NCBI GenBank assembly: GCA_000406005.1
Contig: ASZN01000015.1
Span: forward strand, 15,542 to 79,541
Length of the DNA: 64,000 bases
From: Candidatus Poribacteria bacterium WGA-3G
Lineage (GTDB): Bacteria; Poribacteria; WGA-4E; WGA-3G
Direction: 5' to 3'
Shown here: in pieces, positions 1,078-46,600 of the stretch
Position numbering within the stretch: the first letter of the stretch is position 1
How the letters are laid out: the number at the start of each line of letters is the position of its first letter
Notes under the pieces: model-generated
The model's database searches: none
What the model was told of the DNA's origin: nothing
Seen by the model: the letters and a program-made list of their open reading frames with translations, nothing else
Made by a program: the position numbers and the translations under genes

Positions 1078-3762
1078 ATGAGCAGCAACCTAAAAGCCTT
1101 CCGCACAATCATTTGCCTGTTGATGCTCTTTTGGAATCATCACATTGCCTACGCACAACAACCTATTTCACAACAAGCGTTCGTTATCTTTGAAGAACAC
1201 TGCCTCAGCTGCCATGGCGAGTTCGGTTCGTATACGGACGCGCTTCTCATTAAACGCGCGAATTTAATCGTAGACCGCGCTGTTGTTCGGAAGCAGCCGG
1301 ATGCCTCCGAACTCTACCTGCGTCTTCTCGGTGATACGGACACCGGTTCGCAGATGCCTTTGGGACAAGACCCTCTGGATGCTGAGGAAATCGCCACCAT
1401 TCGCCGCTGGATTGAAGCGGGCGCGCCAGATTGGGACGCAATCCCCAAACCCGAACGCCGTTTTATCACCACCGAGGCGATGCTCAAATCTATCCATACC
1501 CATGTAACCTCACTCGCTGCCTTTGACCGCTCCTTCGCACGCTATTTCACACTGACACATCTCTACAATGCCGGTGCAAGCGACGACAACCTCCGCGCCT
1601 ATCGGAATGCCTTGTCGAAATTGGTTAACAGTCTCTCTTGGGGTTCTAAGGTCGTCAAACCGACACCTATTGACCCGGAGGAGACGATTTTCTACATTGA
1701 TCTCAGGTCCTACGAATGGAACATCAAAAGCGATAAGTGGTATAAGATTGAACAGGCGTATCCCTATGGTGTGCGATTGAAGTCATCAAAGTATACAACC
1801 GTATGCCAAGAGACGGACTGTGAGTTGCCGTTTGTCCGTGCCGATTGGTTCATAGCGACGGCTTCTTTACCACCGCTCTACCACGAGATCCTTGACTTAC
1901 CAAAAACAGACAAAGAGTTGGAGACTCGCCTTGAGGTGGATGTTAGTGAAAACATAAAAAATGCCCCAGGTGTCCGTGTCTGGCGTGCAGGTTTTAACGA
2001 TTCTGGTGTATCCGTTAACAACCGCATTGTAGAACGTCATAAATCCCGGTATGGAGCGTATTGGAAATCCTACGACTTTGCGAGAAATGTGGGTACGCAA
2101 AACATCTTCACGCATCCACTCAATTTCACGCATGATGGCAGCGAGATCATCTTCAATCTCCCCAACGGGTTGCAGGTGTACTATCTCTCCGCGGCCACAG
2201 GTGAGCGGCTTGATGAAGCACCGATTAACATCGTATCAAACGCTGGTGCCAGAGACCCAGTTGTCCGTAATGGACTCTCCTGCATGGGGTGCCACACGGA
2301 GGGGATGAAAACATTTGAAGATCAGGTGCGCCCAGTCATTGAACAGAATCGGAACCCTTCTTATGACAAAGCGCAGGCGTTACGTCTCTATGCGGAGAAA
2401 TCAGAGATGGATAGCCTCGTCCGCCAAGATATTGCGCGTTATCGACAAGCGATCGAAGCCGCGGGTGGTGTGTTCGGTGGAAGTGAACCGATACAGCAGT
2501 TGGTCAAGCAGTTTAAGGGACCGCTTGATGCTGTGCACGCTGCAGCAGAAGTCGGATTAGAAACCGCTGATTTCCTTAAGGAGATTCGTGAGAATAGAAC
2601 ACTCCGTAAAGCCGGGTTGTTAGTACTAATGTTAGAACCGGTTATTAATCCCGATACCTGGGAACCACAATATAAACCAACAGTTAAGCGCGATGCTTGG
2701 GAATCAAAATTTAAGGAGATAGTTGCTGCCCTGCAAGGACGGGTTATATCTGAGGGACTCGGAATAACGAAACCGACTTACAAATTTAGGGTGGAACCAA
2801 AGTATCCAGACACTGCTAAAAAGGCGAAGAAGGAAGGCACAGTTATTCTACAACTAACCATTGATGAAAACGGTCTCCCTAAAGATATTGTCGCATTGAC
2901 AAGTCTCGGATTTGGACTCGAAGAAGCAGCAATTGAAGCAACAAAAAAAATGACCTTCCATCCGGCAACGAAAGGTGGGACACCGATCAGCCTTGAGAAT
3001 GTTCAAATTCCATACGAGTTTAAACTTGAGTTAACGCCATCAGACACTGCTAACATAGGCATGGCTCTGATTCCCGCAGGCGAGTTCCAGATGGGCAGCA
3101 ACGACAATGAAGCAAGCGATGACGAAAAACCGGTCCATACAGTTTATGTTGATGCGTTCTACATAGATAAATACGAAGTGACCGTTGGCGAGTACAAAGA
3201 ATTTATTCAGGCTACGGGGTACCCTGCTCCTGACTGGAGTGAGATCGCTGAGGATTCTCCCACTGATCGTCACCCTATCGTTCATATAAGTTGGCACGAT
3301 GCTATGGCTTATGCACAATGGGCAGGTAAAAGGCTTCCAACAGAAGCAGAATGGGAGAAAGCTGCGCGCGGCGGGTTAGTTGGACAAAAGTACACTTGGG
3401 GCAATGCCATCGATCCCAGCAAAGGAAACTATAACCGTAACGCCGGCGGAACAACTGTTGTTGGCAGTTATCCGCCGAATAGTTATGGCGTGTACGATAT
3501 GGCAGGTAACGCGTGGGAGTGGTGCCTTGATGCATACAATTCGGATTTCTATGCGAGTTCTCCGCTAAAAAATCCGATTTCTGGTGGAACTGTGAAAAGT
3601 ATTGTCTCAAATGTCGCAGTTGTCAAAACCGATCGTGTGTTGCGTGGTATTGCCTGGACGGATACTTCAGAACCTGTGTTAGTTGCGACTCGTGTTGGAA
3701 AAAATCCGGCAAAAACCAGCCGTCTCTACGGTTTCCGTTGCGTGAAACCTGTAACACCTTAG
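1078..3762 (+). CDS. Secreted di-heme (planctomycete-type cytochrome c) protein with TonB C-terminal domain and FGE-sulfatase domain
   Basis: Signal peptide (AYA-Q); CLSCH and CMGCH heme motifs; TonB_C-like PKYPDTAKKAKKEGTVILQLTIDENG...GLEEAAIEA...FHPA; C-terminal FGE motifs. RBS AAGGAG upstream. Confidence 0.85.
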   Translation: MSSNLKAFRTIICLLMLFWNHHIAYAQQPISQQAFVIFEEHCLSCHGEFGSYTDALLIKRANLIVDRAVVRKQPDASELYLRLLGDTDTGSQMPLGQDPLDAEEIATIRRWIEAGAPDWDAIPKPERRFITTEAMLKSIHTHVTSLAAFDRSFARYFTLTHLYNAGASDDNLRAYRNALSKLVNSLSWGSKVVKPTPIDPEETIFYIDLRSYEWNIKSDKWYKIEQAYPYGVRLKSSKYTTVCQETDCELPFVRADWFIATASLPPLYHEILDLPKTDKELETRLEVDVSENIKNAPGVRVWRAGFNDSGVSVNNRIVERHKSRYGAYWKSYDFARNVGTQNIFTHPLNFTHDGSEIIFNLPNGLQVYYLSAATGERLDEAPINIVSNAGARDPVVRNGLSCMGCHTEGMKTFEDQVRPVIEQNRNPSYDKAQALRLYAEKSEMDSLVRQDIARYRQAIEAAGGVFGGSEPIQQLVKQFKGPLDAVHAAAEVGLETADFLKEIRENRTLRKAGLLVLMLEPVINPDTWEPQYKPTVKRDAWESKFKEIVAALQGRVISEGLGITKPTYKFRVEPKYPDTAKKAKKEGTVILQLTIDENGLPKDIVALTSLGFGLEEAAIEATKKMTFHPATKGGTPISLENVQIPYEFKLELTPSDTANIGMALIPAGEFQMGSNDNEASDDEKPVHTVYVDAFYIDKYEVTVGEYKEFIQATGYPAPDWSEIAEDSPTDRHPIVHISWHDAMAYAQWAGKRLPTEAEWEKAARGGLVGQKYTWGNAIDPSKGNYNRNAGGTTVVGSYPPNSYGVYDMAGNAWEWCLDAYNSDFYASSPLKNPISGGTVKSIVSNVAVVKTDRVLRGIAWTDTSEPVLVATRVGKNPAKTSRLYGFRCVKPVTP

Positions 3763-3815: not shown

Positions 3816-3834
3816 GTAGGGCAATTCATTGCCC
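3816..3834 (+). repeat. GTAG-led hairpin, REP-like
   Basis: GTAGGGCAATTCATTGCCC; stem GGGCAAT/ATTGCCC, intergenic. Confidence 0.55.
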
Positions 3835-3867
3835 GTTCTGGCAATTAATAACTTCTTTGGAGAAGAT

Positions 3868-6174
3868 ATGAAAACTTTTTGCATAATAACTTGTTTGCTG
3901 ATTTTAGCCTTGAGCCAGCAGATTGTGTACGCACAACAAGCACTTGAGCAACAAGCGTTCGCTATCTTTGAGCAACACTGCCTCGACTGCCACGGCGAAT
4001 TCGGATCTTATAGCGATGTACTTACGATGAAGCATAAAGACTTAATCGAAGATCGCTCCCTCATACCGGGGCAACCCGATGCCTCCGAACTCTATCTGCG
4101 CCTGCTCGGTGATACGGACAGAGGATCACAAATGCCGTTGGGACAAGATCCTCTTGATGCTGAGGATATCTCCACAATCCGCCGTTGGATTGAAGCGGGC
4201 GCGCCAGATTGGGAGACAATTCCCAAACCCGAACGCCGTTTTATCACTACCGAGGCGATGCTCAAAACTATCCACACCCATGTGACATCGCTCACTGCCT
4301 TCGACCGCTCCTTTGCACGCTATTTTACACTGACGCACCTATACAACGCCGGTGCGAGCGACGACAACCTCCGCGCCTATCGGAATGCCTTATCGAAATT
4401 GGTGAACAGTCTCTCGTGGGGTGCCGAGGTTATCAAGCCGACACCCATCGACCAAGAAGAGACAATCTTCTACATCGATCTCAGGCACTACGAATGGGAC
4501 ATCAAAAGCGATAGGTGGTATAAGATTGAGCAGGCGTATCCGTACGGTGTACAGCTAAAATCATCAACGTGGACAACGTTATGTCAAGAAACGGACTGTG
4601 AGTTGCCATTCATCCGCGCCGACTGGTTCATCGCCACCGCCTCACTACCACCGCTCTACCACGAGATCCTTGACTTACCAAAAACAGACAAAGAGTTGGA
4701 GACTCGCCTTGAGGTGGATGTTAGTGAAAACATAAAAAATGCCCCAGGTGTCCGTGTCTGGCGTGCAGGTTTTAACGATTCTGGTGTATCAGTCAACAAT
4801 CGCATTGTAGAACGCCACAAATCTCGATACGGTGCCTATTGGAAATCCTACGACTTTGCAGGAAATGTCGGCACACAGAACATCTTCACACACCCCCTCA
4901 ATTTCACACATGACGGGGGCGAGATAATCTTCAACTTACCCAACGGATTACAGGCGTACTATCTCTCCACTGCCACAGGTGATCGGCTTGACGAAGCACC
5001 CATTAACATCGTCTCAAACGCCGGTGCAAGAGACCCAGTTGTCCGCAATGGACTCTCCTGCATGGGCTGCCACACGGAAGGAATGAAAACGTTTGAAGAT
5101 CAAGTACGTTCAGTGATTGAGCAGAATCGGAACCCCTCTTACGACAAAGCACAAGCGTTACGTCTCTATACTGAAAAGTCAAAGATGGATACTCTCGTCC
5201 GCGAAGACATTGCGCGTTATCGGCAAGCAATTGAAGCCGCTGGTGGTGTCTTCGGTGGGAGTGAACCGATCCAGCAGTTGGTCAAGCAGTTTGAGGGTCC
5301 GCTTGATGCAACGCACGCTGCGGCGGAGGTAGGATTAGAAACTGATGACTTTCTCGAAAAAATACGTGAGAATAGGACGCTGCAGAATGCCGGGTTGTTG
5401 GTACTTGGGGTTGAGAAAGGAACTGTTAAGCGAGATGCGTGGGAATCGCAATTTGGTAAAACGGTCTCTGTCCTGAAACTTGGAAAACATGTAAACCCTT
5501 ACGCCAACATGGTACTAATTCCAGCAGGCGAGTTTCAGATGAGGACTAACCCTGATGATTCTGACGAAGAACTTCTGTATACAACAATCTCCGTTGATGC
5601 ATTTTATATAGACAAATATGAAGTGACGAATGCACAATATAAAGAGTTCCTTAATGCTAATCCAGAGTGGCGGAAAGAGGAGCGAACTAATCCTAGAAAG
5701 TACCATTACCTTGCCTATAACTGTTATTTGTATGACTGGAATGAGGACACCTATCCGAGTGGTAAAGGCAATCAGCCCGTAGCCTTTGTTAGTTATGATG
5801 CTGCGGTGGCTTATGCACAGTGGATAGGCAAGCGTCTACCAACGGAGGCAGAATGGGAGAAAGCAGCACGCGGCAGGTTAGTAAAAAAGAAATATCCATG
5901 GGGCAATTTGATTGATTCCAACAAGGCAAATCCTCGGGAAAGTGTTATCACACCTGTTGGAAGTTATCCTCCAAACGGATATGGCCTGCATGATATAGCT
6001 GGTAACGTGGCGGAATGGTGCCTTAAGGAACCACTCCGCGCTGACTCCGATGTTGCTATTGAATTTAAGGATATTGTATTGCGCGGTGGCCTACGCGTTG
6101 ATCTGCGTGTTTCTTACGGTGGAGACATAAGTTACTTTAACGGATTTCGTTGTGTTAAGGATGTAAAACCTTAA
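3868..6174 (+). CDS. Secreted di-heme cytochrome c / FGE-sulfatase protein, paralog of 1078..3762 without the TonB_C domain
   Basis: ATG at 3868 follows GGAG and starts a signal peptide; CLDCH and CMGCH; about 530 N-terminal residues highly similar to the upstream gene; FGE domain with a shortened C-terminus. Confidence 0.85.
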   Translation: MKTFCIITCLLILALSQQIVYAQQALEQQAFAIFEQHCLDCHGEFGSYSDVLTMKHKDLIEDRSLIPGQPDASELYLRLLGDTDRGSQMPLGQDPLDAEDISTIRRWIEAGAPDWETIPKPERRFITTEAMLKTIHTHVTSLTAFDRSFARYFTLTHLYNAGASDDNLRAYRNALSKLVNSLSWGAEVIKPTPIDQEETIFYIDLRHYEWDIKSDRWYKIEQAYPYGVQLKSSTWTTLCQETDCELPFIRADWFIATASLPPLYHEILDLPKTDKELETRLEVDVSENIKNAPGVRVWRAGFNDSGVSVNNRIVERHKSRYGAYWKSYDFAGNVGTQNIFTHPLNFTHDGGEIIFNLPNGLQAYYLSTATGDRLDEAPINIVSNAGARDPVVRNGLSCMGCHTEGMKTFEDQVRSVIEQNRNPSYDKAQALRLYTEKSKMDTLVREDIARYRQAIEAAGGVFGGSEPIQQLVKQFEGPLDATHAAAEVGLETDDFLEKIRENRTLQNAGLLVLGVEKGTVKRDAWESQFGKTVSVLKLGKHVNPYANMVLIPAGEFQMRTNPDDSDEELLYTTISVDAFYIDKYEVTNAQYKEFLNANPEWRKEERTNPRKYHYLAYNCYLYDWNEDTYPSGKGNQPVAFVSYDAAVAYAQWIGKRLPTEAEWEKAARGRLVKKKYPWGNLIDSNKANPRESVITPVGSYPPNGYGLHDIAGNVAEWCLKEPLRADSDVAIEFKDIVLRGGLRVDLRVSYGGDISYFNGFRCVKDVKP

Positions 6175-6219: not shown

Positions 6220-6912
6220 TTACATAGACGTATCCGATGCATCAGGGACTATCCACGGTTGGTCGAAGATTCCCTGCCAATCATCAGTGAAATCTACCGA
6301 CAAATCTCCCCCTAATTTTTTTCCCTTAAACAGAAGATAGTATTTCTGTATAAGTTCCGCAAGGTAGTCTATACAATCATCTAAGGCCTTGAACGGGGGA
6401 GATCCCTTGAGTCCCTTCTTGATGATCTTTTCGTCAAGATGGGAAACCCGAGTGTCAGCGAATTCCTCCACTGTTCTGGATAGTGCTTTTAACTTACACA
6501 AGTCTTGGCAAACAATGATCGCATCAATATGATCTGCACATTCTCCTGCAAACTTTTCGTCAAAGAGGTCATTAGCGCGCTGTTCACCTCCCGGATGTAG
6601 ATACACGAAACGCTCCACAAATCGCTCTCGCGAAAGCACAGAAGGGGTTTGTATTATCTTCTCCAACAGTCCGACCAGTGAAATACTACTCCTATGATGC
6701 CTAACTTGCCGGCGAATTGCACTTACAGCATAATCAAAATAAGCCTGCCCTAAAAACACATTAAACCAGTTAGGCTTATAATTCTCAAGATTTGGGTTAT
6801 TCCTAATTATTGCTTGTACTTCCCAGAAGATGTGTCTATTAAAAAAAACTTCCGCAAAGTTTTTGTAGAGAACTTCAAGCCATTTTTCCCATTTTTCAAC
6901 CTGTTGATTCAT
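6220..6912 (-). CDS. HEPN (AbiU2-like) domain protein, putative
   Basis: All-helical 230-aa protein with SISLxxLL and a late FADTRVSHLD motif resembling the AbiU2-type (R)DKxIAHxD. The Arg position of the usual Rx4H motif holds Ala. Confidence 0.5.
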   Translation of the reverse strand: MNQQVEKWEKWLEVLYKNFAEVFFNRHIFWEVQAIIRNNPNLENYKPNWFNVFLGQAYFDYAVSAIRRQVRHHRSSISLVGLLEKIIQTPSVLSRERFVERFVYLHPGGEQRANDLFDEKFAGECADHIDAIIVCQDLCKLKALSRTVEEFADTRVSHLDEKIIKKGLKGSPPFKALDDCIDYLAELIQKYYLLFKGKKLGGDLSVDFTDDWQGIFDQPWIVPDASDTSM

Positions 6913-7038: not shown

Positions 7039-7204
7039 ATTATCGCTGAATTGTCAAGAGAAACATTTTGAAAATCAGAACCGTTTAATTTTGAGACAAA
7101 GTTCTCGATCTGACGATCAAATCTAACAAAATTTGGTTGATATCCTTGCACGGAGTATGCTATTATTTTCACACCAAAGGAAAGCCGCATTTTGGAGAAA
7201 AGCA

Positions 7205-8992
7205 ATGATCACAATGCCAGATCCGCAGGATCACGTTTTCTATAACAATCGCGGTATTGATTACGGCGAAAAGGGTGAGTACGATCTTGCCATCAAAGAT
7301 TTTACCAAAGCTATTGAACTCAAACCGGACTACGCAATTGCCTACAACAATCGAGGGGCTGTCTATCGGAGCAAAGGTAAGCACGATTTAGCTATACAAG
7401 ACTGCAACAAAGCCATACAACTGAAATCAGATTATGCCGAACCTTATAGCAATCGTGGTGCTGCTTATCGCAACAAAGGCGATTATGACCGTGCCATTAG
7501 AGACTATGACAGGGCAATAAAACTAAAACCGAATTTTGTTCAGGCATATTACAATCGAGGTCTTGCTTACCATGAAAAAGGCGAATTAGATATTGCCATC
7601 AAGAACTACAACAAGGCAATAGCACTAAACCCAAAACTTGCCCATCCTTATAACAATCGTGGCAATGTTCATCTCCAAAAACGAGATTTTGATAGTGCTA
7701 TTGAAGACTATAGCAAGGCAATAGAATTGAATCCAGAACTTGGTCTTGCATATTACAATCGCAGTGAAGCCTGGTTACATCCAAAAGAATGGGATAAAGC
7801 CAAAACCGATCTGACCGTTGCCAAGAAATTAGGCATGGATATCATTGCTGCGTTTCATAACGCTTACAAGGACGTTGAGACGTTCGAGAAGCGAAAGGGT
7901 TTTAAGGTGCGGGACGACGTTGCACTCATGTTAACACAGCGACGGCGGAACCGGTACCCCAAGACGCTAAAAATATTGGATGCCGATGGTAAGCCTCTGG
8001 AATCACCGAATGTGGTGAATTTACGCGAGCAGCTTCGCAATACTGGCACGCCATTGGGCAAATACCTTAAGGCAAAATCTACTTTTGGCATCAACACAGC
8101 ACCCACAGAGGCATTCGTTGTGGACAAAGCCACACGGAGTAATCTCATTGCGGCACATCCATCATCCGCTGATATTTTGAAGCCGTTCTTGCACGGACGC
8201 GATTTAAGACGTTGGCATGCAGAGCCACAAGGAAAATGGTTGATATTTGCACACCGAGGCATCGCGATAAACGAGTATCCAGCAATCTTGAAATACTTGG
8301 AAAAGCACAAGGATGCCTTGAGCAAGCGGGCTGGTAAACAGGCATGGTATGAATTGCAGGCAGCCTGCAGCGATCCGGAGCGTTTTGCCCAACCGAAACT
8401 TGTTTGTCCAAACCTCTATGAACACCAAACTTTTGCGGTTGATACTGCCGGTTTTTATTGTGGGAATACAGCCTACCTGATACCCACTGAGGAAACGTGG
8501 TTATGCGGTCTCCTGAATTCCCGCGTTGTGGAGTGGTTTTATTCACAGGTGTCGAACCAATTAACCATTGATTACCTGCGGGCACGTAGTGGTTATATGC
8601 AACAAATCCCTGTTCCTGACATCACATCAACGCAGAAGGCACTTATCGGTCAATTTGTGGCGTACCTTATCTATCTCCAGCAGCAGCCGACAACAAATAG
8701 TAATGATTTGGCGCACGCTCGCGACGCTATAATGCTTAGATATTTTGAGCGGATAATTGATGGCATGATTTATGAGTCATATTTGCCAGATGAACTGCAT
8801 AAAGGCCGCAAACACTTCTTCCAACCGTTACGGGATGAACAGTTGCCGCAACTTGAAGATATCCAGGGAGATAAAATGTCTGCGTTCCGGGACATCTTTG
8901 AGCACTTGCATGAAAGAAAACACCCAGTGGCAGTCAATCTATTCTTTCTCGATAGTGTAAAACCTGTACGCATTATTCAGGGAAAACTATGA
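7205..8992 (+). CDS. TPR protein fused to a type IIG restriction-modification target-recognition region (TaqI_C-like)
   Basis: Six TPRs (YNNRG..Y..KG.YD.AI.D..KAI.L.P). Then LREQLRNTGTPL..Y, ILKPFLHGRDLRRW, WLIF, KLVCPNL..HQTFAVD, GNTAYLI, WLCGLLNSRVVEWF, YMQQIPVP. No methyltransferase or nuclease motifs. ATG 7205 follows GGAG. Confidence 0.8.
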   Translation: MITMPDPQDHVFYNNRGIDYGEKGEYDLAIKDFTKAIELKPDYAIAYNNRGAVYRSKGKHDLAIQDCNKAIQLKSDYAEPYSNRGAAYRNKGDYDRAIRDYDRAIKLKPNFVQAYYNRGLAYHEKGELDIAIKNYNKAIALNPKLAHPYNNRGNVHLQKRDFDSAIEDYSKAIELNPELGLAYYNRSEAWLHPKEWDKAKTDLTVAKKLGMDIIAAFHNAYKDVETFEKRKGFKVRDDVALMLTQRRRNRYPKTLKILDADGKPLESPNVVNLREQLRNTGTPLGKYLKAKSTFGINTAPTEAFVVDKATRSNLIAAHPSSADILKPFLHGRDLRRWHAEPQGKWLIFAHRGIAINEYPAILKYLEKHKDALSKRAGKQAWYELQAACSDPERFAQPKLVCPNLYEHQTFAVDTAGFYCGNTAYLIPTEETWLCGLLNSRVVEWFYSQVSNQLTIDYLRARSGYMQQIPVPDITSTQKALIGQFVAYLIYLQQQPTTNSNDLAHARDAIMLRYFERIIDGMIYESYLPDELHKGRKHFFQPLRDEQLPQLEDIQGDKMSAFRDIFEHLHERKHPVAVNLFFLDSVKPVRIIQGKL

Positions 8993-9269
8993 AAATTACG
9001 GAAATCGATATCAAAAACTTCAAAGCCTTCTGCGGTACCTACCATATTGACCTGCACAAGGCAGGAAAGAATCTGCTGGTTTATGGTGAAAACGGTAGTG
9101 GAAAAACTTCGTTATATCAGGCGTTGAAAAGATTTCTCGAATCCAGTGAAGATGCACACCAAGCCGTATCCTAAATCCCCTCAGCCATACGACGATTACA
9201 AATATACCAAAGAAAGAAATTGAGGATGCCATCGAAGCGGTAGCGCGTCTTAAAACTGTGCTGCAGTAG
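8989..9269 (+). pseudogene. Internally deleted RloC-like ABC-ATPase-HEPN gene
   Basis: 5' part MKITEIDIKNFKAF...LLVYGENGSGKTS (Walker A) stops at 9174. A second frame, 9165-9269, reads RILNPLSHTTITNIPKKEIEDAIEAVARLKTVLQ-stop (HEPN-type Rx6H plus terminal helix). Confidence 0.75.
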
Positions 9270-9340
9270 GACGAACGCTGTACCTTGCAATTAACGACGC
9301 AATACGGTATAATTCAATTCCATAAGGAGGATGCAACATA

Positions 9341-9910
9341 ATGGATGTTAAAGACGCGATTCTTACACGACGTACTATTTTCAAGTTCAAACCAGAACCC
9401 GTCCCGAACGATGTTATCGAACAGGTCTTCAGTTTCGGGATATGGGCACCCAATCACCATGTCACAGAACCGTGGCGTTTCACTGTGATTGGCAAGGAGA
9501 CAAAGTTAATCCTTGCAGACCGCTACCGCGAAATCAAGATGGAGGATACCCCCGACCACGTTGATGCCGAGAATCTCGCCAAAATCGGTGAGCTCGCTTA
9601 CGAGAAATTCATGTCGAAGCCGACGATTATTGCTGTTTCGTGCTTACAAGAAGGCGATGAACAACGCCAACGCGAAGATTATGCCGCCGCTTGTTGTGCG
9701 ATGCAGAACGTCCAACTCGCCGCATGGGATGCTGGCGTCGGGATGCAATGGAGCACCGGCAGAATCACAATGGAAGAACAGACCTACCAGTTGTTAGGCA
9801 TTGACTCAGCACAAGAGTATATCATCGGCTTCTTCTACACGGGTTACCCCGCCGACATCGCGCAACCGAAACGGCAACCAGCAGTTGAGTTTATTCGCTG
9901 GGTCGCATAA
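9341..9910 (+). CDS. Nitroreductase family protein
   Basis: AILTRRTIFKF, WAPNHHVTEPWRFTVI, AACCAMQNVQLAAW..GVGMQWST. RBS AAGGAGG. Confidence 0.9.
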   Translation: MDVKDAILTRRTIFKFKPEPVPNDVIEQVFSFGIWAPNHHVTEPWRFTVIGKETKLILADRYREIKMEDTPDHVDAENLAKIGELAYEKFMSKPTIIAVSCLQEGDEQRQREDYAAACCAMQNVQLAAWDAGVGMQWSTGRITMEEQTYQLLGIDSAQEYIIGFFYTGYPADIAQPKRQPAVEFIRWVA

Positions 9911-9998: not shown

Positions 9999-10442
9999 AT
10001 GGAAGAGGAAAACAGAGACCAACGGTCATCGATATTTACAGTTCGGAATGCTGAGAACGCGATGATCACGTTCACAATCCTAGCACTGTTCTGTTTTTTA
10101 GTAGTACTCTTTCATGAGATGTTGATCAAAAGTCAAAGTTTTGTTGATGCACTTTACAGTGTTGCAAGGAATATCTCAAAAATCATGTCAGCAGCAACAA
10201 TGTTGACGATCTTTGAGGAGGCTATTGATATTATGTTTCAACGTATTAGAGATACTCTGAAAAAAGAAAGGGAGCTTAAAGCCCGGATTAGTGCCGAGGC
10301 CATGGAGGCAGGCAGAGCAGAAGGCAGAGCAGAGGTCTACCGAGAGGTCGCTGAATGGAATCAGCGTAGAATTGAGGCAGAGGCTCGTGGCGAGAAATTT
10401 ACGGAGCCGCCTCCCATCTCACCACAAGATTCCTCGGCATAG
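9999..10442 (+). CDS. Hypothetical small membrane protein with RAEG-repeat C-terminus
   Basis: Hydrophobic segment ITFTILALFCFLVVLF; C-terminus EAGRAEGRAEVYREVAEWNQRRIEAEARGEKFTEPPP. Confidence 0.65.
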   Translation: MEEENRDQRSSIFTVRNAENAMITFTILALFCFLVVLFHEMLIKSQSFVDALYSVARNISKIMSAATMLTIFEEAIDIMFQRIRDTLKKERELKARISAEAMEAGRAEGRAEVYREVAEWNQRRIEAEARGEKFTEPPPISPQDSSA

Positions 10443-11369: not shown

Positions 11370-12215
11370 GTGAATAAGTACGTTCTCTTTCTTTTTAATC
11401 TCAAGCATTTTACCATAATGCTAACAGTGCTTTTAGTAAGCAGTCTGTTTGGATGTAAGTCTCCTGATCCGGTACAACAGCAGAAGCGCGAACTTCAACG
11501 TGACGCGTTAAAACTGCGGATGGGACAAGCACTCAACCCGACAGATGCAGAAGGGCATCTTCAACTCGGAAAAGTTTATCGTGAATTGGGCGAGTATGAA
11601 AAAGCGATAGAATCTTTCCAACATGCCCTCGCACTTGATGCAGAAAATGCACATGTCTATAACAATTTCGGTCTGGTTTACATGGATACCCGTTTGTTTG
11701 TGCTTGCGATTGAGATGTTCCAAGCTGCGTTGGAATTGTCGCCCGAAAATCCTGCATTCTTGAACAATCTCGGCTATGCATACAATATGACCGACCAGTT
11801 TGAAGAGGCACTCGCCGCTTATCGCAGTGCCATTGACTCGGACCCGACTTTTGTTGATGCCTATTACAACCTCGCCGATACCTACCTCAATCGCGAGATG
11901 TATCCGGAGGCTGTCCAGTATTACGAAGCAGCACTCGAAATCGAAGAAGGCGATGCCGACGCCGATATCTATTTTAACGCCGGACTCGCTTATGAGAAAA
12001 ACGGGCAATTCCTTCCTGCTATCCAAGCCTACGAAAAAGGATTATCGCTTGACGACAGCGATGCGGAGGCGTATTACCGTCTCGCACAGACATATAAGAA
12101 AAATGGCGATCTACTTATGATGCGTCGCTATCTCGAAACGTTTTTGGATCGGGCGCGCGGGCTGCCGCATCTTGAAGAACAGGTCCGCGAGGCAGAGCAG
12201 CTGTTTGACAAGTAG
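11370..12215 (+). CDS. TPR-repeat lipoprotein
   Basis: Lipobox-like SLFGC followed by about six TPR units. Confidence 0.85.
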   Translation: MNKYVLFLFNLKHFTIMLTVLLVSSLFGCKSPDPVQQQKRELQRDALKLRMGQALNPTDAEGHLQLGKVYRELGEYEKAIESFQHALALDAENAHVYNNFGLVYMDTRLFVLAIEMFQAALELSPENPAFLNNLGYAYNMTDQFEEALAAYRSAIDSDPTFVDAYYNLADTYLNREMYPEAVQYYEAALEIEEGDADADIYFNAGLAYEKNGQFLPAIQAYEKGLSLDDSDAEAYYRLAQTYKKNGDLLMMRRYLETFLDRARGLPHLEEQVREAEQLFDK

Positions 12216-13509
12216 CACGCTTTCTCAGGATTAGTAGAAATTCTGATTTCATCCCGTCTGGATTCTTATTCTTCCGCGCACCGAACAGTTTCCGCGTCTT
12301 AATCCGATCCTCATAGACCTTTTCAAACGTCCATCCGCGTTCCGTGAAATACTCCGCCAATATCCGCCACAATTCGACCATTATGCCGTCAATTCGAGGG
12401 TTACCGACGAAGATACACGCTGCGGCGTTCGGTTTCAATTGTACCATCGCGTTTTCGAGGGCATTGACCGTATGACAGAAATAGGAATCAAGCCGTTTGC
12501 AAAGGTCGTCCCGCGTGAGCATCTCCCTGACTTTATCCAACGTTTCGGTCTGGACTATCCGATCTGCCTTCCGATACGGGATTTCAAGCCGTGATAATTC
12601 TCGAACCTCTTCCTCGGTGTGTCCTAACCAGAACAGTTCCATCTTCGTGGAACGGATATACTCCTGCGCTTGGAGATATGGCGGCGATGTTATCAGCGCA
12701 TCGCATTCCCTCGGCACAGTAATATAGGACGAATCCACACCCCCTTGCCACTGTATTTCAGGTGTATTTTCGTTGTAATGTTGCTGTGTGTACATCACGA
12801 AATCCTTGAGACTTCTTAACGTCTTTAGCGAGAGACTGTGAACCATCTCATCTAACTGTTCTCTCCAATTCTCCTTAAGCAGCTCCGCTATAGCGTTCAA
12901 CTTACGTTTGGATCTCGCGAGTTTCGGTGTCCTGTCTTCTGTATTGGAGAAACGTTTGCTCGCCTTCAACAACGCAGCCTTAATAATGGAAGCAAAGACA
13001 TCGTCGTCCATGTTATTGACGAATCCCCAATAATATGATAAGACCTCTAAGATTTCGGGCGCGTACCAGTAATCGACGTTTGACCAATCGGGTATGAACC
13101 GGTGGTTGCTCTCTTGCATTGTCGCTAAACGTCTGAACAAATCCGCCTCGTTCAACGGTTTTTTCCCGCTATAAATTTTCAGCGGCATAATATGGTTCAG
13201 AAGTAGATTGAGATCGAAGAGAACAGCGTTGCGTTTGCACAAGTAAGCCTCAACACCTACTGTCCCAGACCCCGCGAACGGGTCAACAATCCAATCCGTT
13301 TCTTTTGTGTAGGTGTTAATCGCGTAACGGACGATTTGTGGAATAAATTTCGCAGGATAGGCAAAAACAGCGTGGGTCAAGTAGCCGGTATCGTCGATTT
13401 CAGGAACGAGGTCGCGAAAGGAGACCGATTCGACCCCTTCAGATGTCGTCTGCTCTGTTGGCGTTTCAAGCTCGGTATCTGTAGGAAAAAGCGTGAACTG
13501 TTCTTCCAT
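12115..13509 (-). CDS. Orphan DNA amino-methyltransferase, N4-cytosine type (motif I before motif IV)
   Basis: THAVFAYPAKF, DPFAGSGT (motif I), LITSPPY (motif IV, SPPY). Likely start ATG 13509. The frame runs 101 nt into the convergent TPR gene. Confidence 0.8.
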   Translation of the reverse strand: MEEQFTLFPTDTELETPTEQTTSEGVESVSFRDLVPEIDDTGYLTHAVFAYPAKFIPQIVRYAINTYTKETDWIVDPFAGSGTVGVEAYLCKRNAVLFDLNLLLNHIMPLKIYSGKKPLNEADLFRRLATMQESNHRFIPDWSNVDYWYAPEILEVLSYYWGFVNNMDDDVFASIIKAALLKASKRFSNTEDRTPKLARSKRKLNAIAELLKENWREQLDEMVHSLSLKTLRSLKDFVMYTQQHYNENTPEIQWQGGVDSSYITVPRECDALITSPPYLQAQEYIRSTKMELFWLGHTEEEVRELSRLEIPYRKADRIVQTETLDKVREMLTRDDLCKRLDSYFCHTVNALENAMVQLKPNAAACIFVGNPRIDGIMVELWRILAEYFTERGWTFEKVYEDRIKTRKLFGARKNKNPDGMKSEFLLILRKRATCQTAALPRGPVLQDAAARAPDPKTFRDSDAS

Positions 13510-13554
13510 AGGACTTACGCACCCTCCCTTGCAGGCATAGAACTTACGCACCCT
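13509..13554. repeat. Two direct copies of the TAG(G/A)ACTTACGCACCCTC repeat
   Basis: TAGGACTTACGCA at 13509-13521 and TAGAACTTACGCA at 13538-13550, period 29 bp. Same 13-mer as the TIR at 30547-30661 and the half-site at 52014-52026. Confidence 0.8.
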
Positions 13555-13560
13555 CAAAGG

Positions 13561-40272: not shown

Positions 40273-40634
40273 TGTCCTCGTATTACATTCCTTGCAGTTT
40301 TCTGTAATTTTAATCAACCTAATTGGGTTTTTTGCGTCTAATCATCATAAAGGGGTTGCTGTGCATTTATCCCAAAGAGCATCATATTAAAGGATTCAGA
40401 AGCAGTCAATAGATACAAAAAAGTTCTCGACACACTCCCTTTGATGTCAGAGGCGTGCGCAATAGAGTGTCCTATGTGCAAAAAACACATATTTTAAATG
40501 CCGCTTGCTGTATCAAAACGTGGAGGTGCCGATACCGGCGTAGGACAACCGAACCTGCCCGGAAAATTTGTGAATCAACGCGAAGCACCGAACCTTGGCA
40601 ATTTTTCGGACTCGCGAAAAGCAGGGAGAAACGA

Positions 40635-43600
40635 GTGTCAAAAACTAAAAATATGTCCGGTGTTACTTACGAGCCGGAACACAAAAGTCGAAACCAACTG
40701 AAGTTTGCTATCATAAGTCAGATTTTCGTCTGTCTCACAATGTTAATCGGGGCCGCCAATGTTTGGGCAGTCCCTACTCTGACGGTGACCGCCGAGCTTA
40801 CCGAATTTTCTCCCAACCAGGATGGTGTCCTTGATACTGTCACTGTCTATTATAGTATAAGCGAAGCTGTTGACCAAAGTGAATTGCAATTTTTACTGAA
40901 AACGGGTGATACCGAAACGCCATTTGGACAACCTGTTCCCCTTGCGAAAAGCGAAGGCGGACATACCTTCCGATGGGATGGAGGAGACCAGAATTTCAAA
41001 GTCTTTCCAGATGGGCAGTACGTACTAAAATTTCAAGTCGAGGCAGCCGGTAGTACCTACTCGGCTGAAACAAATCCTATTACCATTGATACACAAGTGC
41101 CTATAATATCCAGTGTTGTTACGAATGACAATCTAATGCTCGTTGATGGCGTTTTTATCAATTCCCCCATCCACTCAATTCAGGGGACAGCGGATGCCGC
41201 AGGCGGTGCTCCCATTGATCTTACCGCCTCGGAAACCAGTATTACTGTGAAAACACAACGAGGGGCTACTATAAAAGGAAATCTCAGTTACAACCAAACA
41301 TCATTAACGTTTGCCTTTGGCAATCGTTTGGACACAGCATCCGAAAATGGGAAATATACCGCCGCAATCGCTGTCACTGATAGAGCCGGAAACGTTGCTC
41401 AAAGAACATTAGATTTCACTTTTGATAACGTCGCACCTAATTTGACAGAGGTTGCTATCTCAAACGGCAAGTTAATACCTGGAGATGGGGTTAGCGGCAC
41501 CCTAGATTTTGTTGAGGCAACGCTCAGTGATAACCTTCAGAACGGTCAAGACCTCTCTGACTCCACGATTCGTCTTACTGGACCCAATGGCACTGTCTTA
41601 GGACGACAGACACAACCTGTCGCTAATAAAATCCGTTGGATATTCTTGTCGCCGCTCTTGGCGCGGGACGGCCTCATGGACGGTCTGTACACAATTGAGA
41701 TTAACGCCGTCGATAAGGCGGGAAACCAAACAGGTGCTTTACAAATACCTTTTATTTTTGATAACCTGCCACCCGTTGTTACCTTAGGTGCTACAGAAGA
41801 ATCTCCGTTCACACTAAATCAGGACACGATTTACCACGCACAACCGCTTTCACGGATTGTCGCAACCTTTGATGATGCCGGTATCGGTGTCAACTTGCGA
41901 GGCGACACTCGGATCGTTTTCGGAACCAGGAATGCTGATGGCGGACTCAATACACTTCCCGGACGCGTCGTGCTCGCACAGGAGAGTGGTCAATTAACTT
42001 ACATCTTGGAAAGACCGCTGACGAGTCGAGACGGAAGCCAAGATGGACACTATGTCCTCAACGTTCAGGCAACGGACACCCTCGGCAATACGAAGACTTA
42101 CAACTACGATTTTGTCTACGATACACAGATTCCCGCACTCGTTTCTACGCTCCCAGCTGCGAATCAGACGGTCTCAGAGCTCTCGGAAGTTCGCGTTGTA
42201 CTTGATGAGACAACCAGCGGTATCGATTTCATTCAGAGCACCTTCCGATTAACTCACGATGTCAATGGAGAGGTGCCTGTAAATCTAACGAGTAACGGCA
42301 CAGATGCAGCGACTTTGACACTCGCACAACCCATTGCTTTAGACGGCTCCGATGAAGGCACCTACACAATCGAAATCTCACCGACCGACTTAGCCGGGAA
42401 CGTCGGTGTTACCGTTCAACGTGAATTCTACTTCGTGAGTCAAATCCGACCTGAGATTCGATTAACCATGCCGGAGACTAAAACGGTCAACAACCTGACG
42501 ACGGTTACTGCGGAACTCACCGGCTATATCGGTGCCGGGATTGATTTCGATGCGTCAACACTGACCGTCAGCAACGCGCAAGGCACCCTGATCACACAGA
42601 CCGAACCTGAACACGATAGCGTCAATAACTTGTTGATTTGGAACATTGACGGCACGATTCCACGCGATGGCAGTGCCGATGGTGAATATACCGTAACTGC
42701 GACATTCGTCGATTTTACCGGACAACGTTTAACACAACAATTTCAACTCTCTTTCGATACACGAATCCCAGCAGTCACTTCAGTCTTGATTGGCGGTAAA
42801 CTCGGCGTTATCGTTTACGTCAACGGTGACGCTTCGGACATCGTCGCTAATTTCGCTGATTTGAGTGGTGCCGGGTTAGACTTGGATGAGGGCGGGTCAA
42901 CGATCTCGGTAACGAGTGCTGAGGGGCTCCCTATTCCCGGTATTACAACCGCTAACGGCACAGATCAGTTGACGTGGATACCCATAGTACTTCCCACCAA
43001 CGGCAGTGCTGATGGAAGTTATACCGTCATCGTTACACCGAAAGACAAAGCCGGTAGGCAAGGCGATGTTACGTATCGTCAATTCGTCTACGATACACAG
43101 GAACCACGCATTACAGATGCTACACCGATTTCATTGACGCAACCCGTTACTTATATCGGCGGCATTCTCTCGCAATTTCAGTTTACCGTTGAAGATGTCG
43201 GACCTGCCGGTTTAGAACTCTCGGAACAGACGATAGAACTCCTTGATCCCCAAGGGGATTCCGTTAGTGCCACGCTGACGTTTGATGAGATAAGCAGTCA
43301 GTTGTATCTCACGCTTGACTCTCCCCTCGCACAAGATGGCAGTGCCGATGGCGAATATAAGGTAAAATTACCGCTTGTTGATAGATCCGGAAATGTTTCG
43401 GATTCGGAGCATGTCTTCGTTTACGATTCTCAAGTGCCTCGTATCTCCTCCGTCTCGATAAACACCGAATCATCTTTAGAACTGCTCCCACAAGAGATTG
43501 CCGAAGTTTCGGAATCTATCAGCAGTATCACGCTCCAATTTGAGGAAGCGACCCGTGTTGATTTCGCGAATACCGTCGTCAGTTTGATCGGTCCCGACGG

Positions 43601-46600
43601 GCAACCCATTCCAATCAATATTTCCCCTGATGGTCTTACGCAACTTACCGCACGCTTCGTCGCACTTACCCAAGCAGGATTGTATACACTCTCTGTCACA
43701 CCGCAAGACATAGCAGGTAATGTTGCACAAGGTGCCCTACAATACGCATTTCGACTCGATTTCGTCTTGCCGAGTGTGAGTGTTGTCGAATTGGGGGCGC
43801 AGATTGGCGATGTTGTTTTCCTCAACGATAGTAATACTACGATCGTCGCTACTTTGATTGATGGTACAGGTTCCGGACTCGCTTTAGGCGATGGGGGTTC
43901 AAGCGTTGTTGTGACGGGACCTTCAGAAGCAGTTGTCCCCGGTCAGACGCGCACAATCGGAACGAACCAGTTGGTATGGCAACCGATATCTCTGCCGACT
44001 GATGGGAGTGCTGATGGTCGATATACCGTCACGATTACACCCATTGATCAAGCCGGAAGACAGGGCGATGTCGTTCATCGTGAGTTTATCTATGATACCG
44101 AGGTGCCTCGGATAACCGCATCTTCTCCCCTCACTTTGAGTCAACCCGTCTCCTATATCAGTGGCGGCTTAGATCAGTTTTCGTTTACTGTTGAAGATGT
44201 GGGACCAGCGGATCTGCTTCTGGAATCGCAAACAATTGAGTTGATAGACAGTGCAGATGGTGTCGTTCCAGCAACCTTGACGTTTGACGAACTAACAAAC
44301 CAACTCTATTTGACGTTGGCGACCCCGTTTGCTCGAGATGGTAGTGTTGACGGCGCATATACCATGCGGTTATCTCTCGTTGACAGAGCAGGCAACGTTC
44401 TAAATGTCGGGCACACTTTGATCTATGATTCTCAAGCACCCCAGCTCGCTTTGGTGATGGCGGATACGGAGACACCCATCGAACTTATCCCACAAAGCAC
44501 CACCGAGATTTTAGAACCTGTCAGCAGTATTACCCTCCACTTTGACGAAGCAACGAGAGTTGATTTCGCGAATACCGTTGTTACGCTGGTAAGTTCTGGT
44601 GCCTCTACAACAACTGGTGGTACTGAAGTTGTAGAGATTCCGATCACATTGCAAGATAACGGCACGTCTCAAATGACCGTCCGTTTCGTGGAATTGAACC
44701 AACTTGATACATACCTACTCTCTGTTACACCCCAGGATATAGCAGGGAACGTCTCACCGGCACCAACGAATTACACGTTTGTTCTTGATATACCGTTGCC
44801 GGTTGTCAGTTCTGTCGTTATAGGCGATATCGAGACGGCAGCTGGCGGCGATGTTGTTTACATCAATGCAAGTAACACGATTATCGGTGCAGTACTTGAA
44901 GACCCATCAGAGACAGGATTAGATTTCAGTAACGATGGTTCGAAGATTACCGTCGCAGACACGGATAACTTAATCGTTCGCGGAGTAACAGGGGCTAACG
45001 GCGTGGACCTCCTTATATGGGAACCGGCAACCTTCACAACCGACGGTACAACAGATGGGAGATACGGCGTATATGTTACCCCTGTTGACAAAGCGGGGCG
45101 TGAGGGAAATATTGTTTATCGTGAGTTTATCTATGATACGCAGGAACCGGAGATTAGTGACGCTGAACCAATTGACCTGAGCCAACCCGTTTCCTATATC
45201 AGTGAGAGTCTAAGGCAGTTCCGATTCACTGTAGCGGATGTTGGGCCCGCGGACCTCGTGTTAGCAGATCAAATTGTTAGCCTACGCGATGCCAGTGGGA
45301 ACTTGGTTCCAGCGCGCCTCACAAACGATACCGGAAACCAGGTTTTCCTTACGCTTGACCAACCCTTACCGCGGGACGGTAGTATGGATGGTGAATATAC
45401 CGTCGTTATTGCCTTCGCAGATAGAGCAGGGAACGCACTCAATATTGAACATACGCTTATCTATGACACGCAAGCGCCGACCGTCGTTAGCACAGTCCCT
45501 GCTAATGGTGCATTCCTGACTGAGGATATTACACAGATACAGGTAACACTCAATGATGAAGGTGGGAGTGAGATCGACTGGTCAATGACAACAATCACAC
45601 TCGTGAACCCGAGTGGACAGCAGATAGCGGGCGAACTCGTCAATAATGGCACAACAACGTTGACGCTTAGCACCAATCAACTCGTTGAGGATGGACAATA
45701 TATCGTCCGCGTTCAGGCTATTGACCGAGCAGGGAACGGCGGTGTAACATCGCTTGATCGGAGTTTTGTGCTGTCGAGAAGTTTACCTGTCATCACTTCT
45801 ACAGAACCCAGAACCGCACCAGCGGACGAAGCGTTTACCAATGAAGAAATTGAACAGATAGAGGTGAATCTCGAAACCGATGATGCCAACCATCTCTCAA
45901 CGCTTCGGCTCTTAAATCCTGCGAACCAAGTCGTCGCAGGGAAGCAGGAGCGCGCGAGCGGTAGGTTAATCTATAATCTCGTACGTCCACTCGCAACTGA
46001 CGGCTCCGAAGACGGTATCTATACCATTGAGTTTACACCTATCAGTGCTTCTGGTCGAAGCGGCGAAGTTCAGCGATTGACCTTCACCTACGACACACAG
46101 GCACCAGAAATTGAGAGCGATGATGCAATCCAATTCGTCGTCGCTGAATCTGCAGGTAATAATTCATTGACCGAGATTCGCGTCACTCCAACTGACGACA
46201 CGTCCGGGATTGATTGGGAAAATCTTGACGATGCGTGGGTAACTTTTCAGCAGATGTCCCCGAACCGCGCAAAAGTGTCAGGACGCGTTTCTGAGGATAG
46301 ACAAGGCACACTGATTTTCCTTCTAACAGTTCCACTCGCAGACAACGGTTCTGCTGATGGCGAGTATCAGATTACTGTTAACCCCGTAGACCGGGCAGGG
46401 AACGATGATGAACCCTATGAAAGGGTCTTCGTCTACGATACCAGGCCGCCAATGATTGATGTGAGCACACTGCTTATAAATGAGGTACCCCTGCTGGTTG
46501 ACATTGATGCCGAGAACTATCCGAGCGCGATTTCTACAACCGGTGGCGTCGTTATACAAGTAAGTATCTTTGATACAGGTTTAGGTGTCAACCTCACACA

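Follow-up and report, generated by a model that had tools for sequence, protein, structure and literature searches.

Restriction-enzyme recognition domains are known as parts of the enzymes themselves or as specificity subunits. PrrC and RloC are restriction-linked ABC-ATPase and HEPN-type anticodon nucleases, which stay latent and fire when the associated restriction system is attacked. In other bacterial systems, tetratricopeptide repeats (TPRs) are combined with TIR domains, as in TIR-TPR pairs such as BcTir/Tpr (bioRxiv 10.1101/2023.05.26.542521), and Iyer, Aravind and colleagues have placed FRG in the ART superfamily, as a candidate NADase effector in prokaryotic immunity (PMC9503650). 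Here, we examined a stretch of 64,000 nucleotides (nt) from Candidatus Poribacteria bacterium WGA-3G (assembly GCA_000406005.1, contig ASZN01000015.1, positions 15,542 to 79,541 of the forward strand), termed the window herein, in which a gene at 7205-8992, termed A, encodes a TPR array joined to the C-terminal region of a type IIG restriction-modification enzyme. We consider it probable that this gene is the intact but orphaned subunit A of a conserved two-gene module (A and a partner gene, B) in sponge-symbiont bacteria, and that the module is a putative anti-phage system of the abortive-infection type.

With Eco57I-family type IIG enzymes, and also with CamA, M.BseCI, M.TaqI, MmeI, and PglX, the window A protein has in common a TaqI_C recognition domain followed by C-terminal helices. 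The type IIG enzymes carry an N-terminal PD-(D/E)xK nuclease and a gamma-class N6-adenine methyltransferase, whereas window A has neither and begins with a TPR array. The following features were recognized in and directly upstream of the gene, with lengths in amino acids (aa):

7205-8992, plus strand: A gene (subunit A, TPR6 plus type IIG C-terminal module, without a catalytic domain), 595 aa, intact (open reading frame [ORF] and translation, Pfam)
7137-7166, plus strand: sigma-70-like promoter match, TTGATA-18-TATTAT with an upstream TG, about 40 nt 5' of the ATG (consensus scan)
7232-7843, plus strand: TPR array of five canonical 34-aa repeats (aa 10-179) and a degenerate capping repeat (aa 180-213) (Pfam, translation register)
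7835-7942, plus strand: family-specific helical linker, MDIIAAFHN...TQRRR, aa 211-246, kept in all family members and absent from type IIG enzymes
7943-8989, plus strand: module corresponding to the complete C-terminal region of Eco57I-family type IIG enzymes (profile search, PADLOC, Pfam, Foldseek)

The gene starts at an ATG with GGAG about 8 nt 5' of it; a longer TTG frame opens at 7133, and the upstream frame, which opens at 7127, encodes TPRs only. The 292-bp divergent intergenic region 5' of A is AT-rich (GC content 0.30-0.35), and the number of promoter matches that the consensus scan returned upstream of A was not above chance. In Pfam, the array matched TPR_1 with an E value of 8e-54 over aa ~10-213, with five stretches each for TPR_1, TPR_11, and TPR_2. 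The module is made up of a linker that precedes the target recognition domain, the TaqI_C recognition domain (nt 8180-8614), and a C-terminal helical bundle; TaqI_C (PF12950) was matched at aa 326-470 with an E value of 7e-16, over its cutoff. An earlier model-made note on this DNA (the sequence-only reading) had described six TPRs joined to a type IIG C-terminal region, and Pfam, PADLOC, the profile search, and the fold all confirmed the fusion, the array being resolved as five canonical TPRs and a capping repeat. Its account of the motifs was likewise borne out: GINTAPTEAF is found at aa 295, where type IIG enzymes have the conserved G-I-x-T-G-x-N-E-A-F, and no FxGxG, NPPY, or PD-(D/E)xK motif was found in window A by regular expressions, nor any methyltransferase or nuclease domain by Pfam (zero matches to Eco57I, N6_Mtase, and MmeI_Mtase). 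A match to TIR or FRG was found nowhere in the window.

The PADLOC models of type IIG restriction enzyme-methyltransferases matched aa 253-526 of window A, only through their last ~250-300 positions (E value 8e-27). We searched 1.8 billion representative proteins with a profile of the C-terminal half (385-residue query), and the full length of the query was matched by about a dozen clusters formed at 50% identity. The next tier consisted of proteins of 1000-1400 aa (E values down to 1e-111) that aligned from query residue ~37-44 to their own C-terminus, and those members of the tier that were scanned carried Eco57I and TaqI_C in Pfam. Because the type IIG enzymes align only from query residue ~37-44 onward, the junction is placed at aa ~247-254 (nt ~7943-7964), in agreement with the position near 7940 given earlier. 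Compared with the closest type IIG C-termini, the module is 42-48% identical over the last ~345 residues, end to end, to the final ...VRIIEGK.

An AlphaFold model of aa 211-595, built from a 61-sequence alignment that included type IIG C-termini, had a pLDDT (predicted local distance difference test score) of 87.7, whereas a 14-sequence alignment gave only 50. In the model, the linker forms three short helices, and residues 36-47 after them are a loop of low confidence. Foldseek matched the model to the DNA-recognition domains of CamA and M.BseCI (E value ~1e-13, template modelling score 0.57), then to MmeI, BREX PglX, and M.TaqI; by sequence, M.BseCI was the sole PDB match for the module. Together, these comparisons indicate that an Eco57I-family type IIG enzyme supplied the module, as a copy of its C-terminus that leaves out methyltransferase and nuclease.

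Had the fusion been confined to this assembly, a local accident would have been favoured; instead, a scan of one genome per species identified the same architecture at 80 loci in species-representative genomes, from at least four phyla. These loci were mostly from Candidatus Poribacteria, with six from Latescibacterota, one from Gemmatimonadota, and one from Curvivirga (Alphaproteobacteria), and six genomes had two or three loci each. A search with the C-terminal half returned 297 homologues, and the 120 listed are 58-95% identical to the query. The listed homologues have from zero to seven or more TPRs and some also a TIR domain; P0090 and P0129, for instance, are single-polypeptide TIR-TPR-TaqI_C proteins. 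Many "short" forms of 385 aa begin exactly at a conserved Met in the cap (MDIIAAFHN...). Over the core, which comprises the linker that begins with this sequence and the module, the window protein is 58-97% identical to the 120 listed homologues and the 80 genome loci, with conserved columns throughout.

Window A is 95% identical to homologue P0001 and orthologous to 595-aa genes at loci L083, L085, and L004. Among these four collinear orthologues, ratios of nonsynonymous to synonymous substitution rates (dN/dS), calculated pairwise by the Nei-Gojobori method, were 0.12-0.22 on the TPR half and 0.10-0.14 on the C-terminal half; in comparisons with the window copy they were 0.10-0.17 across both halves. 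Both halves are under purifying selection, which answers the check on dN/dS that the sequence-only reading had proposed, and the fusion is an ancient event retained by selection.

Across the family, A is followed by gene B, the start codon of which overlaps the A stop codon (translational coupling), as seen in the genomic contexts of P0010 and P0042 and in a tblastn map of all loci. In complete genomes B is a single ORF of 463-500 aa, typically ~475 aa. Its N-terminal 335 residues are an ABC/SMC-type ATPase (Pfam AAA_15, AAA_23, SMC_N) and its last ~130 residues a helical domain, with matches to DUF4145 of the HEPN clan (E value 2.5e-4, full profile) and to HEPN (E value 0.055). Residues R37/E41 and N100/H104 are invariant in this domain, and so are its motifs YLRTAFE and LN..(S/C/N)H. 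We call the domain HEPN-like, not HEPN, because both matches are below the Pfam cutoffs and no solved structure was matched by sequence. B was intact at 54 of the 80 loci, interrupted at 12, a remnant at three (L012, L022, L058), absent at seven (L009, L013, L017, L035, L037, L041, L061), and cut by a contig end at four. When ORFs were clustered across loci, only A and B were widely conserved, with B in 70 loci and any other neighbour cluster in 17 or fewer. The conserved neighbourhood with an ATPase-HEPN gene that the sequence-only reading had proposed to check is therefore present in the family, with the coupled gene intact at 54 loci and interrupted or a remnant at 15 more.

An 88-aa ORF that follows the ATPase in L001 was considered as a separate third gene and rejected; in complete genomes it forms the C-terminal domain of a single protein of ~475 aa, and L001, with its "390 + 88 aa" layout, has a frameshifted B. 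At L054 (11155-14801) and L074 (11155-13302), B is split by insertions of ~0.7-1 kb between ATPase segments, which is another inactivation route. Additionally, one contig from a sponge metatranscriptome (run X26, contig 13; 2685 nt), corresponding to window 8164-9698, runs from the 3' part of A through an intact B into the start of a nitroreductase gene in a relative. It suggests co-transcription of A, B, and the nitroreductase gene in that relative, with DNA carry-over in the library also possible.

The layout of B, an ABC/SMC-type ATPase and then a small HEPN-like domain, is shared with PrrC and RloC, and the A-B pair is likewise often found beside a restriction-modification enzyme. However, no homology of B to these proteins was detectable beyond the ATPase fold, the linked enzyme is of type IIG and not of type I or III, the pair has an obligatory extra subunit, A, with a copy of a recognition module, and the HEPN assignment of B is sub-threshold. 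PADLOC also returned weak similarities of B to the ABC/SMC-type ATPases of PARIS, Septu (PtuA), Lamassu (LmuB), and MADS (mad3), with E values of 1e-11 for mad3 (aa 2-325), 9e-13 for LmuB, and 4e-10 for AriA of PARIS, the last limited to the first 60-86 residues of B. None of AriB (Toprim/DUF4435), PtuB, LmuA, or other mad genes was present in the A-B loci examined.

The N-terminal end of A, which lies in one open frame with the core, is variable among the 80 loci:

43 loci: TIR domain of type a (TIR_2 and ThsB_TIR matches)
4 loci: a second TIR_2 type (type b)
9 loci: FRG (PF08867, E value 3e-14)
22 loci: TPRs only
2 loci: core interrupted

The TPR stretch between head and core measures 33-1380 aa, and arrays in the family range from 2 to more than 30 repeats. 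The swapping of TIR and FRG at the N-terminus of A suggests that they serve as alternative NAD-targeting heads. Most members resemble Thoeris ThsB in starting with a TIR domain that matches ThsB_TIR and TIR_2. They differ from it in that TIR, TPRs, and the restriction-derived module are found in one polypeptide and in that the TIR domain can be swapped for FRG or be absent, the window copy having no head at all; a ThsA-like SIR2/SLOG effector was not among the conserved neighbours of the A-B loci. We also observed an extra FRG gene between a type IIG enzyme and TIR-TPR-core at L041 (6596-7237), L049 (6047-6709), L051 (4872-5468), L070 (5074-5670), and L077 (6727-7362), and these islands hold both NAD-targeting heads.

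A complete Eco57I-type type IIG enzyme of ~1200 aa is located upstream of the pair, on the same strand, at 29 of the 80 loci, and these linked enzymes possess complete recognition domains of their own. Among 21 of them, the N-terminal 800 residues are 64% identical (median), and the last 340 residues 37% identical over ~224 alignable residues; often only 35-70 residues of the recognition ends could be aligned, the usual signature of recognition-domain swapping. The A module at the same loci is ~62% identical over all 345 residues. Its similarity to the recognition domain of its own neighbour (18.6 identities per 100 core residues) is like that to the recognition domains at other loci (18.3). 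Type IIG recognition domains thus vary with specificity, whereas the A-family module does not, and the latter is fused to TPRs and, in relatives, also to TIR or FRG. Since the module is constant while the recognition domains of the linked enzymes diverge, it probably binds something constant, that is, a DNA feature, a DNA mimic, or B. The earlier idea that this region gives sequence specificity is not supported for A, which lacks the diversification seen in the linked enzymes.

The proposed mode of action, likened to that of PrrC and RloC, is that A would be a sensor or scaffold, in which the constant recognition module would bind DNA, a DNA mimic, or B, and the variable TPR array a trigger protein. 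Upon binding, A would activate the NAD-consuming TIR or FRG domain, the HEPN-like RNase of B, or both. TIR or FRG would thereby consume NAD+, and the HEPN-like domain of B would cleave RNA under the control of the B ATPase. We regard the family of A-B pairs as a putative new TIR/FRG/HEPN system of the abortive-infection type, often linked to restriction. In PADLOC v2, A and B gave generic matches but neither is covered by a system model, and our literature searches (TaqI_C with TIR or TPR, MADS/MANTIS, a systematic survey of TIR systems, and Poribacteria defence) returned no description of the pair. If the pair is a defence system, it would represent a new coupling of restriction-type recognition to abortive-infection effectors and a testable case of guard or decoy logic in bacteria. 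Part of the "eukaryote-like" TPR/TIR gene load of sponge symbionts may then be phage defence, not host interaction. The result at the level of the window is more modest: a decaying copy in a variable island.

Two pieces of B remain in the window:

8989-9174, plus strand: B stub of 61 aa, the ATPase N-terminus with Walker A GENGSGKTS, its ATG overlapping the A stop (ORF list; tblastn 74% identity to ATPase aa 1-59)
9162-9266, plus strand: out-of-frame remnant of the B tail (HEPN-like, ...RILNPLSH... at the DNA level; tblastn 82% identity)

DNA alignments to L001, L003, L004, and L083 run from 5' of the A start codon to ~140-160 nt into B. Those to L001, L003, and L083 stop at ~9128-9160 and, after a gap of ~1.16-1.2 kb, pick up again within the final 100 nt of B and in the nitroreductase gene, with window 9161 onward aligning to L003 12477 onward. 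A sponge metatranscriptome contig from a relative has 1208 nt between the sites that correspond to window positions 9105 and 9164, and metagenome contigs of relatives diverge from the window at exactly these deletion points. The public DNA and RNA runs hold related strains only (at most 40% of sampled words), and they confirmed an intact B in the relatives. The alignments indicate that B in the window has been destroyed by an internal deletion of ~1.2 kb and that the window holds the most eroded version of the family. With A lacking TIR or FRG and with B deleted, the window copy most likely no longer defends. Window A is most likely an orphan on its way to loss, with no head and no B, and is predicted at best still to bind its ligand. 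The same state is seen at the three loci with B remnants and at the seven without B.

On the other side of A lies the second gene that had been taken for a HEPN effector:

6220-6912, minus strand: AbiU2-like ORF of 230 aa, divergent from A, with RRQVRH (Pfam HEPN_AbiU2, below cutoff)

Its match to HEPN_AbiU2 (PF18734) had an E value of 0.062 and 13.2 bits against a cutoff of 26.8, over profile positions 16-175 of 193, and it had no match in PADLOC or NCBIfam. None of the 87 related loci that were searched (tblastn for 85, direct comparison for three more) had an AbiU2-like gene, and the ORF had zero coverage in related metagenome contigs. Because it is next to no related locus, we regard it as strain-specific cargo outside the conserved pair, and the proposed check for a conserved neighbourhood with an AbiU2-like gene gave a negative result at these loci. 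The upstream ORFs of relatives (314, 316, and 336 aa) were compared with it as possible kin, and no kinship was found. Of the "neighbouring HEPN effectors" of the sequence-only reading, one is therefore the deletion remnant of an ATPase-HEPN-like gene (8989-9266) and the other an ORF with a sub-threshold AbiU2 match.

Several observations weigh against reading window A as the orphaned subunit of a defence pair. The defence role is deduced from domain content (TIR, FRG, HEPN-like, and ABC ATPase), domain swapping, restriction linkage, and frequent decay. For B, the canonical Rx4-6H arginine is not conserved in the C-terminal domain, a PDB profile search with this domain matched no solved structure significantly, and the PADLOC matches are mostly limited to the P-loop region (the first 50-130 residues for most models). 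A has no effector domain in 22 of 80 cases, a type IIG gene is present within 10 kb at only 36% of loci, and the 76 assessable loci include 22 with a broken B or none, a pattern that would also fit a role of A independent of B. As for the window itself, its own deletion junction was in no public contig or run searched, all from related strains; the deletion may be an assembly artefact, and the intact frame and low dN/dS of window A could indicate a retained function. These last two properties would also be expected of a working, catalytically empty DNA-sensing adaptor in the window, one that recruits the AbiU2-like protein or an effector elsewhere in the genome, and such an adaptor is further favoured by a plausible promoter and Shine-Dalgarno sequence 5' of A, by the AbiU2-like ORF lying divergently 292 bp away, and by near-identical TPR-region fragments in metatranscriptome X25. 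We nevertheless think it unlikely: pairing with the AbiU2-like ORF is not conserved at any related locus and the Pfam match of that ORF is sub-threshold, the conserved partner B is deleted, and pairwise dN/dS is blind to recent loss of constraint. The broader proposal of an empty adaptor for HEPN effectors holds for the family in so far as A is coupled to the ATPase-HEPN-like B; it does not hold in that 56 of the 80 members carry TIR or FRG, nor for the window, where B is gone.

Other explanations concern what the restriction-derived module does. PARIS senses Ocr, and plant NLRs (receptors with nucleotide-binding and leucine-rich repeat domains) carry integrated decoys; by the same logic, the A module could serve as bait by resembling the cleft in which type IIG or BREX-type enzymes bind DNA, so that anti-restriction proteins of phages (Ocr-like DNA mimics, for instance) would, by binding it, trigger TIR or FRG and B. 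We hold this to be possible, with a low probability. The module is restriction-derived, has lost catalysis, and stays constant where genuine recognition domains diverge; a complete type IIG gene is linked at 29 of 80 loci, the fold matches that of PglX, for which structures with bound Ocr are available (8q56, 8zek), and the partner ABC ATPase is weakly similar to AriA, PtuA, and LmuB. The idea is, however, inferential throughout. These hosts have no known anti-restriction protein, a type IIG gene is lacking within 10 kb at 64% of loci, a recognition domain minus the methyltransferase half is only part of the DNA-binding cleft, and the AriA similarity is limited to the P-loop region. That the whole family would be an "integrated decoy" immune receptor or a foreign-DNA sensor, firing NAD+ depletion and a PrrC-like ATPase-HEPN RNase as a second line once restriction is under attack, is a similarly tentative suggestion. 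We give little credence to the idea that A acts in trans on the neighbouring type IIG enzyme as a specificity or regulatory subunit, for instance by redirecting or masking its target sites: A is homologous to the recognition module and a type IIG gene is often linked on the same strand, but the linked enzymes have complete recognition domains of their own with which the A module does not co-vary, most loci, the window included, have no type IIG gene in reach, and the invariable partner is the ATPase. TPRs are the commonest eukaryote-like repeat in Poribacteria, and a part in host interaction has been postulated for them (PMC3909097). If A were a eukaryote-like TPR (or TIR) protein used to interact with the sponge host, its restriction-derived domain being incidental, this abundance and the confinement of the family to sponge-associated lineages would fit. 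Such a role appears very unlikely given the coupled ATPase-HEPN-like gene, the swapping of TIR and FRG, the restriction linkage, and the variable islands, and the N-terminus of window A shows neither a signal peptide nor a membrane segment. Finally, the sequence-only reading had offered as its second option a chance deletion fusion of the two genes; taken as a recent event, this would have joined a TPR gene to the 3' end of a type IIG gene and left a pseudogene-like chimera. The module is clearly type IIG-derived and TPR arrays at these loci recombine readily, yet we reject this origin as highly improbable because the same junction and 36-aa linker are conserved at 80 loci in several phyla and both halves have dN/dS of 0.10-0.17. 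An intact but orphaned subunit A of the conserved pair remains the reading that we prefer.

The site occupied by the pair is flanked on one side by FGE-sulfatase (formylglycine-generating enzyme-like) genes and on the other by nitroreductase, amidohydrolase, N6_N4 methyltransferase, and cytochrome b genes. At this same site, relatives carry different genes upstream of the core:

L003: FRG-TPR-core in one ORF
L088: FRG-TPR, a NERD/UvrD-like helicase, and TPR-core
L083: a 316-aa gene and a NERD-helicase
L086: an insertion sequence and a 336-aa gene
L001 and L004: TIR-TPR11, an in-frame stop, and TPR6-core

All of these loci carry a full-length or near full-length B, frameshifted in L001 and L004. 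The site is a variable island with GC content down to 0.30-0.43. The gene for the NERD and UvrD-like helicase (627-635 aa) is directly 5' of TPR-core in L083 (3989-5872) and L088 (5261-7168), and in L088 it sits between FRG-TPR and TPR-core, as if inserted into a former single ORF. L001 (8143-10631) and L004 (4721-10001) encode an identical 595-aa protein, P0010, and their distances from TIR fragment to core are 2.0 and 4.8 kb (~2.8 kb apart), which reflects either real expansion or contraction of the TPR array between strains or repeats collapsed in assembly. On the upstream side, the window holds three tandem FGE-sulfatase paralogues (10-978, 1078-3762, and 3829-6174, plus strand). Two of these have weak N-terminal cytochrome-c/PSCyt1-like matches (E values 0.001-0.006, below Pfam cutoffs), and one also has TonB_C; synteny with relatives breaks in the C-terminal part of the third.

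Downstream of the pair, a 147-aa ORF (9999-10442, plus strand; GC content 0.37) encodes one hydrophobic segment and a charged coiled-coil tail; it had no family match, and relatives carry different small ORFs there. Further on, a 480-aa protein (12115-13557, minus strand) contains an N6_N4 DNA methylase domain of which only the C-terminal part is present (PADLOC MTase_II, E value 4e-28) and is possibly an orphan methyltransferase. Its gene overlaps that of a 281-aa TPR protein (11370-12215, plus strand) by ~100 nt, tail to tail, and both are syntenic in relatives. The rest of the window was checked for other defence genes and none was found; it encodes transporters, extracytoplasmic function (ECF) sigma factors, glutamine synthetase, and a giant Ig-repeat protein. 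The last of these (40455-47495, plus strand) is 2346 aa long, consists of bacterial Ig-like, CopC, and FlgD-Ig repeats, and probably belongs to the surface or adhesion proteins that are typical of sponge symbionts.

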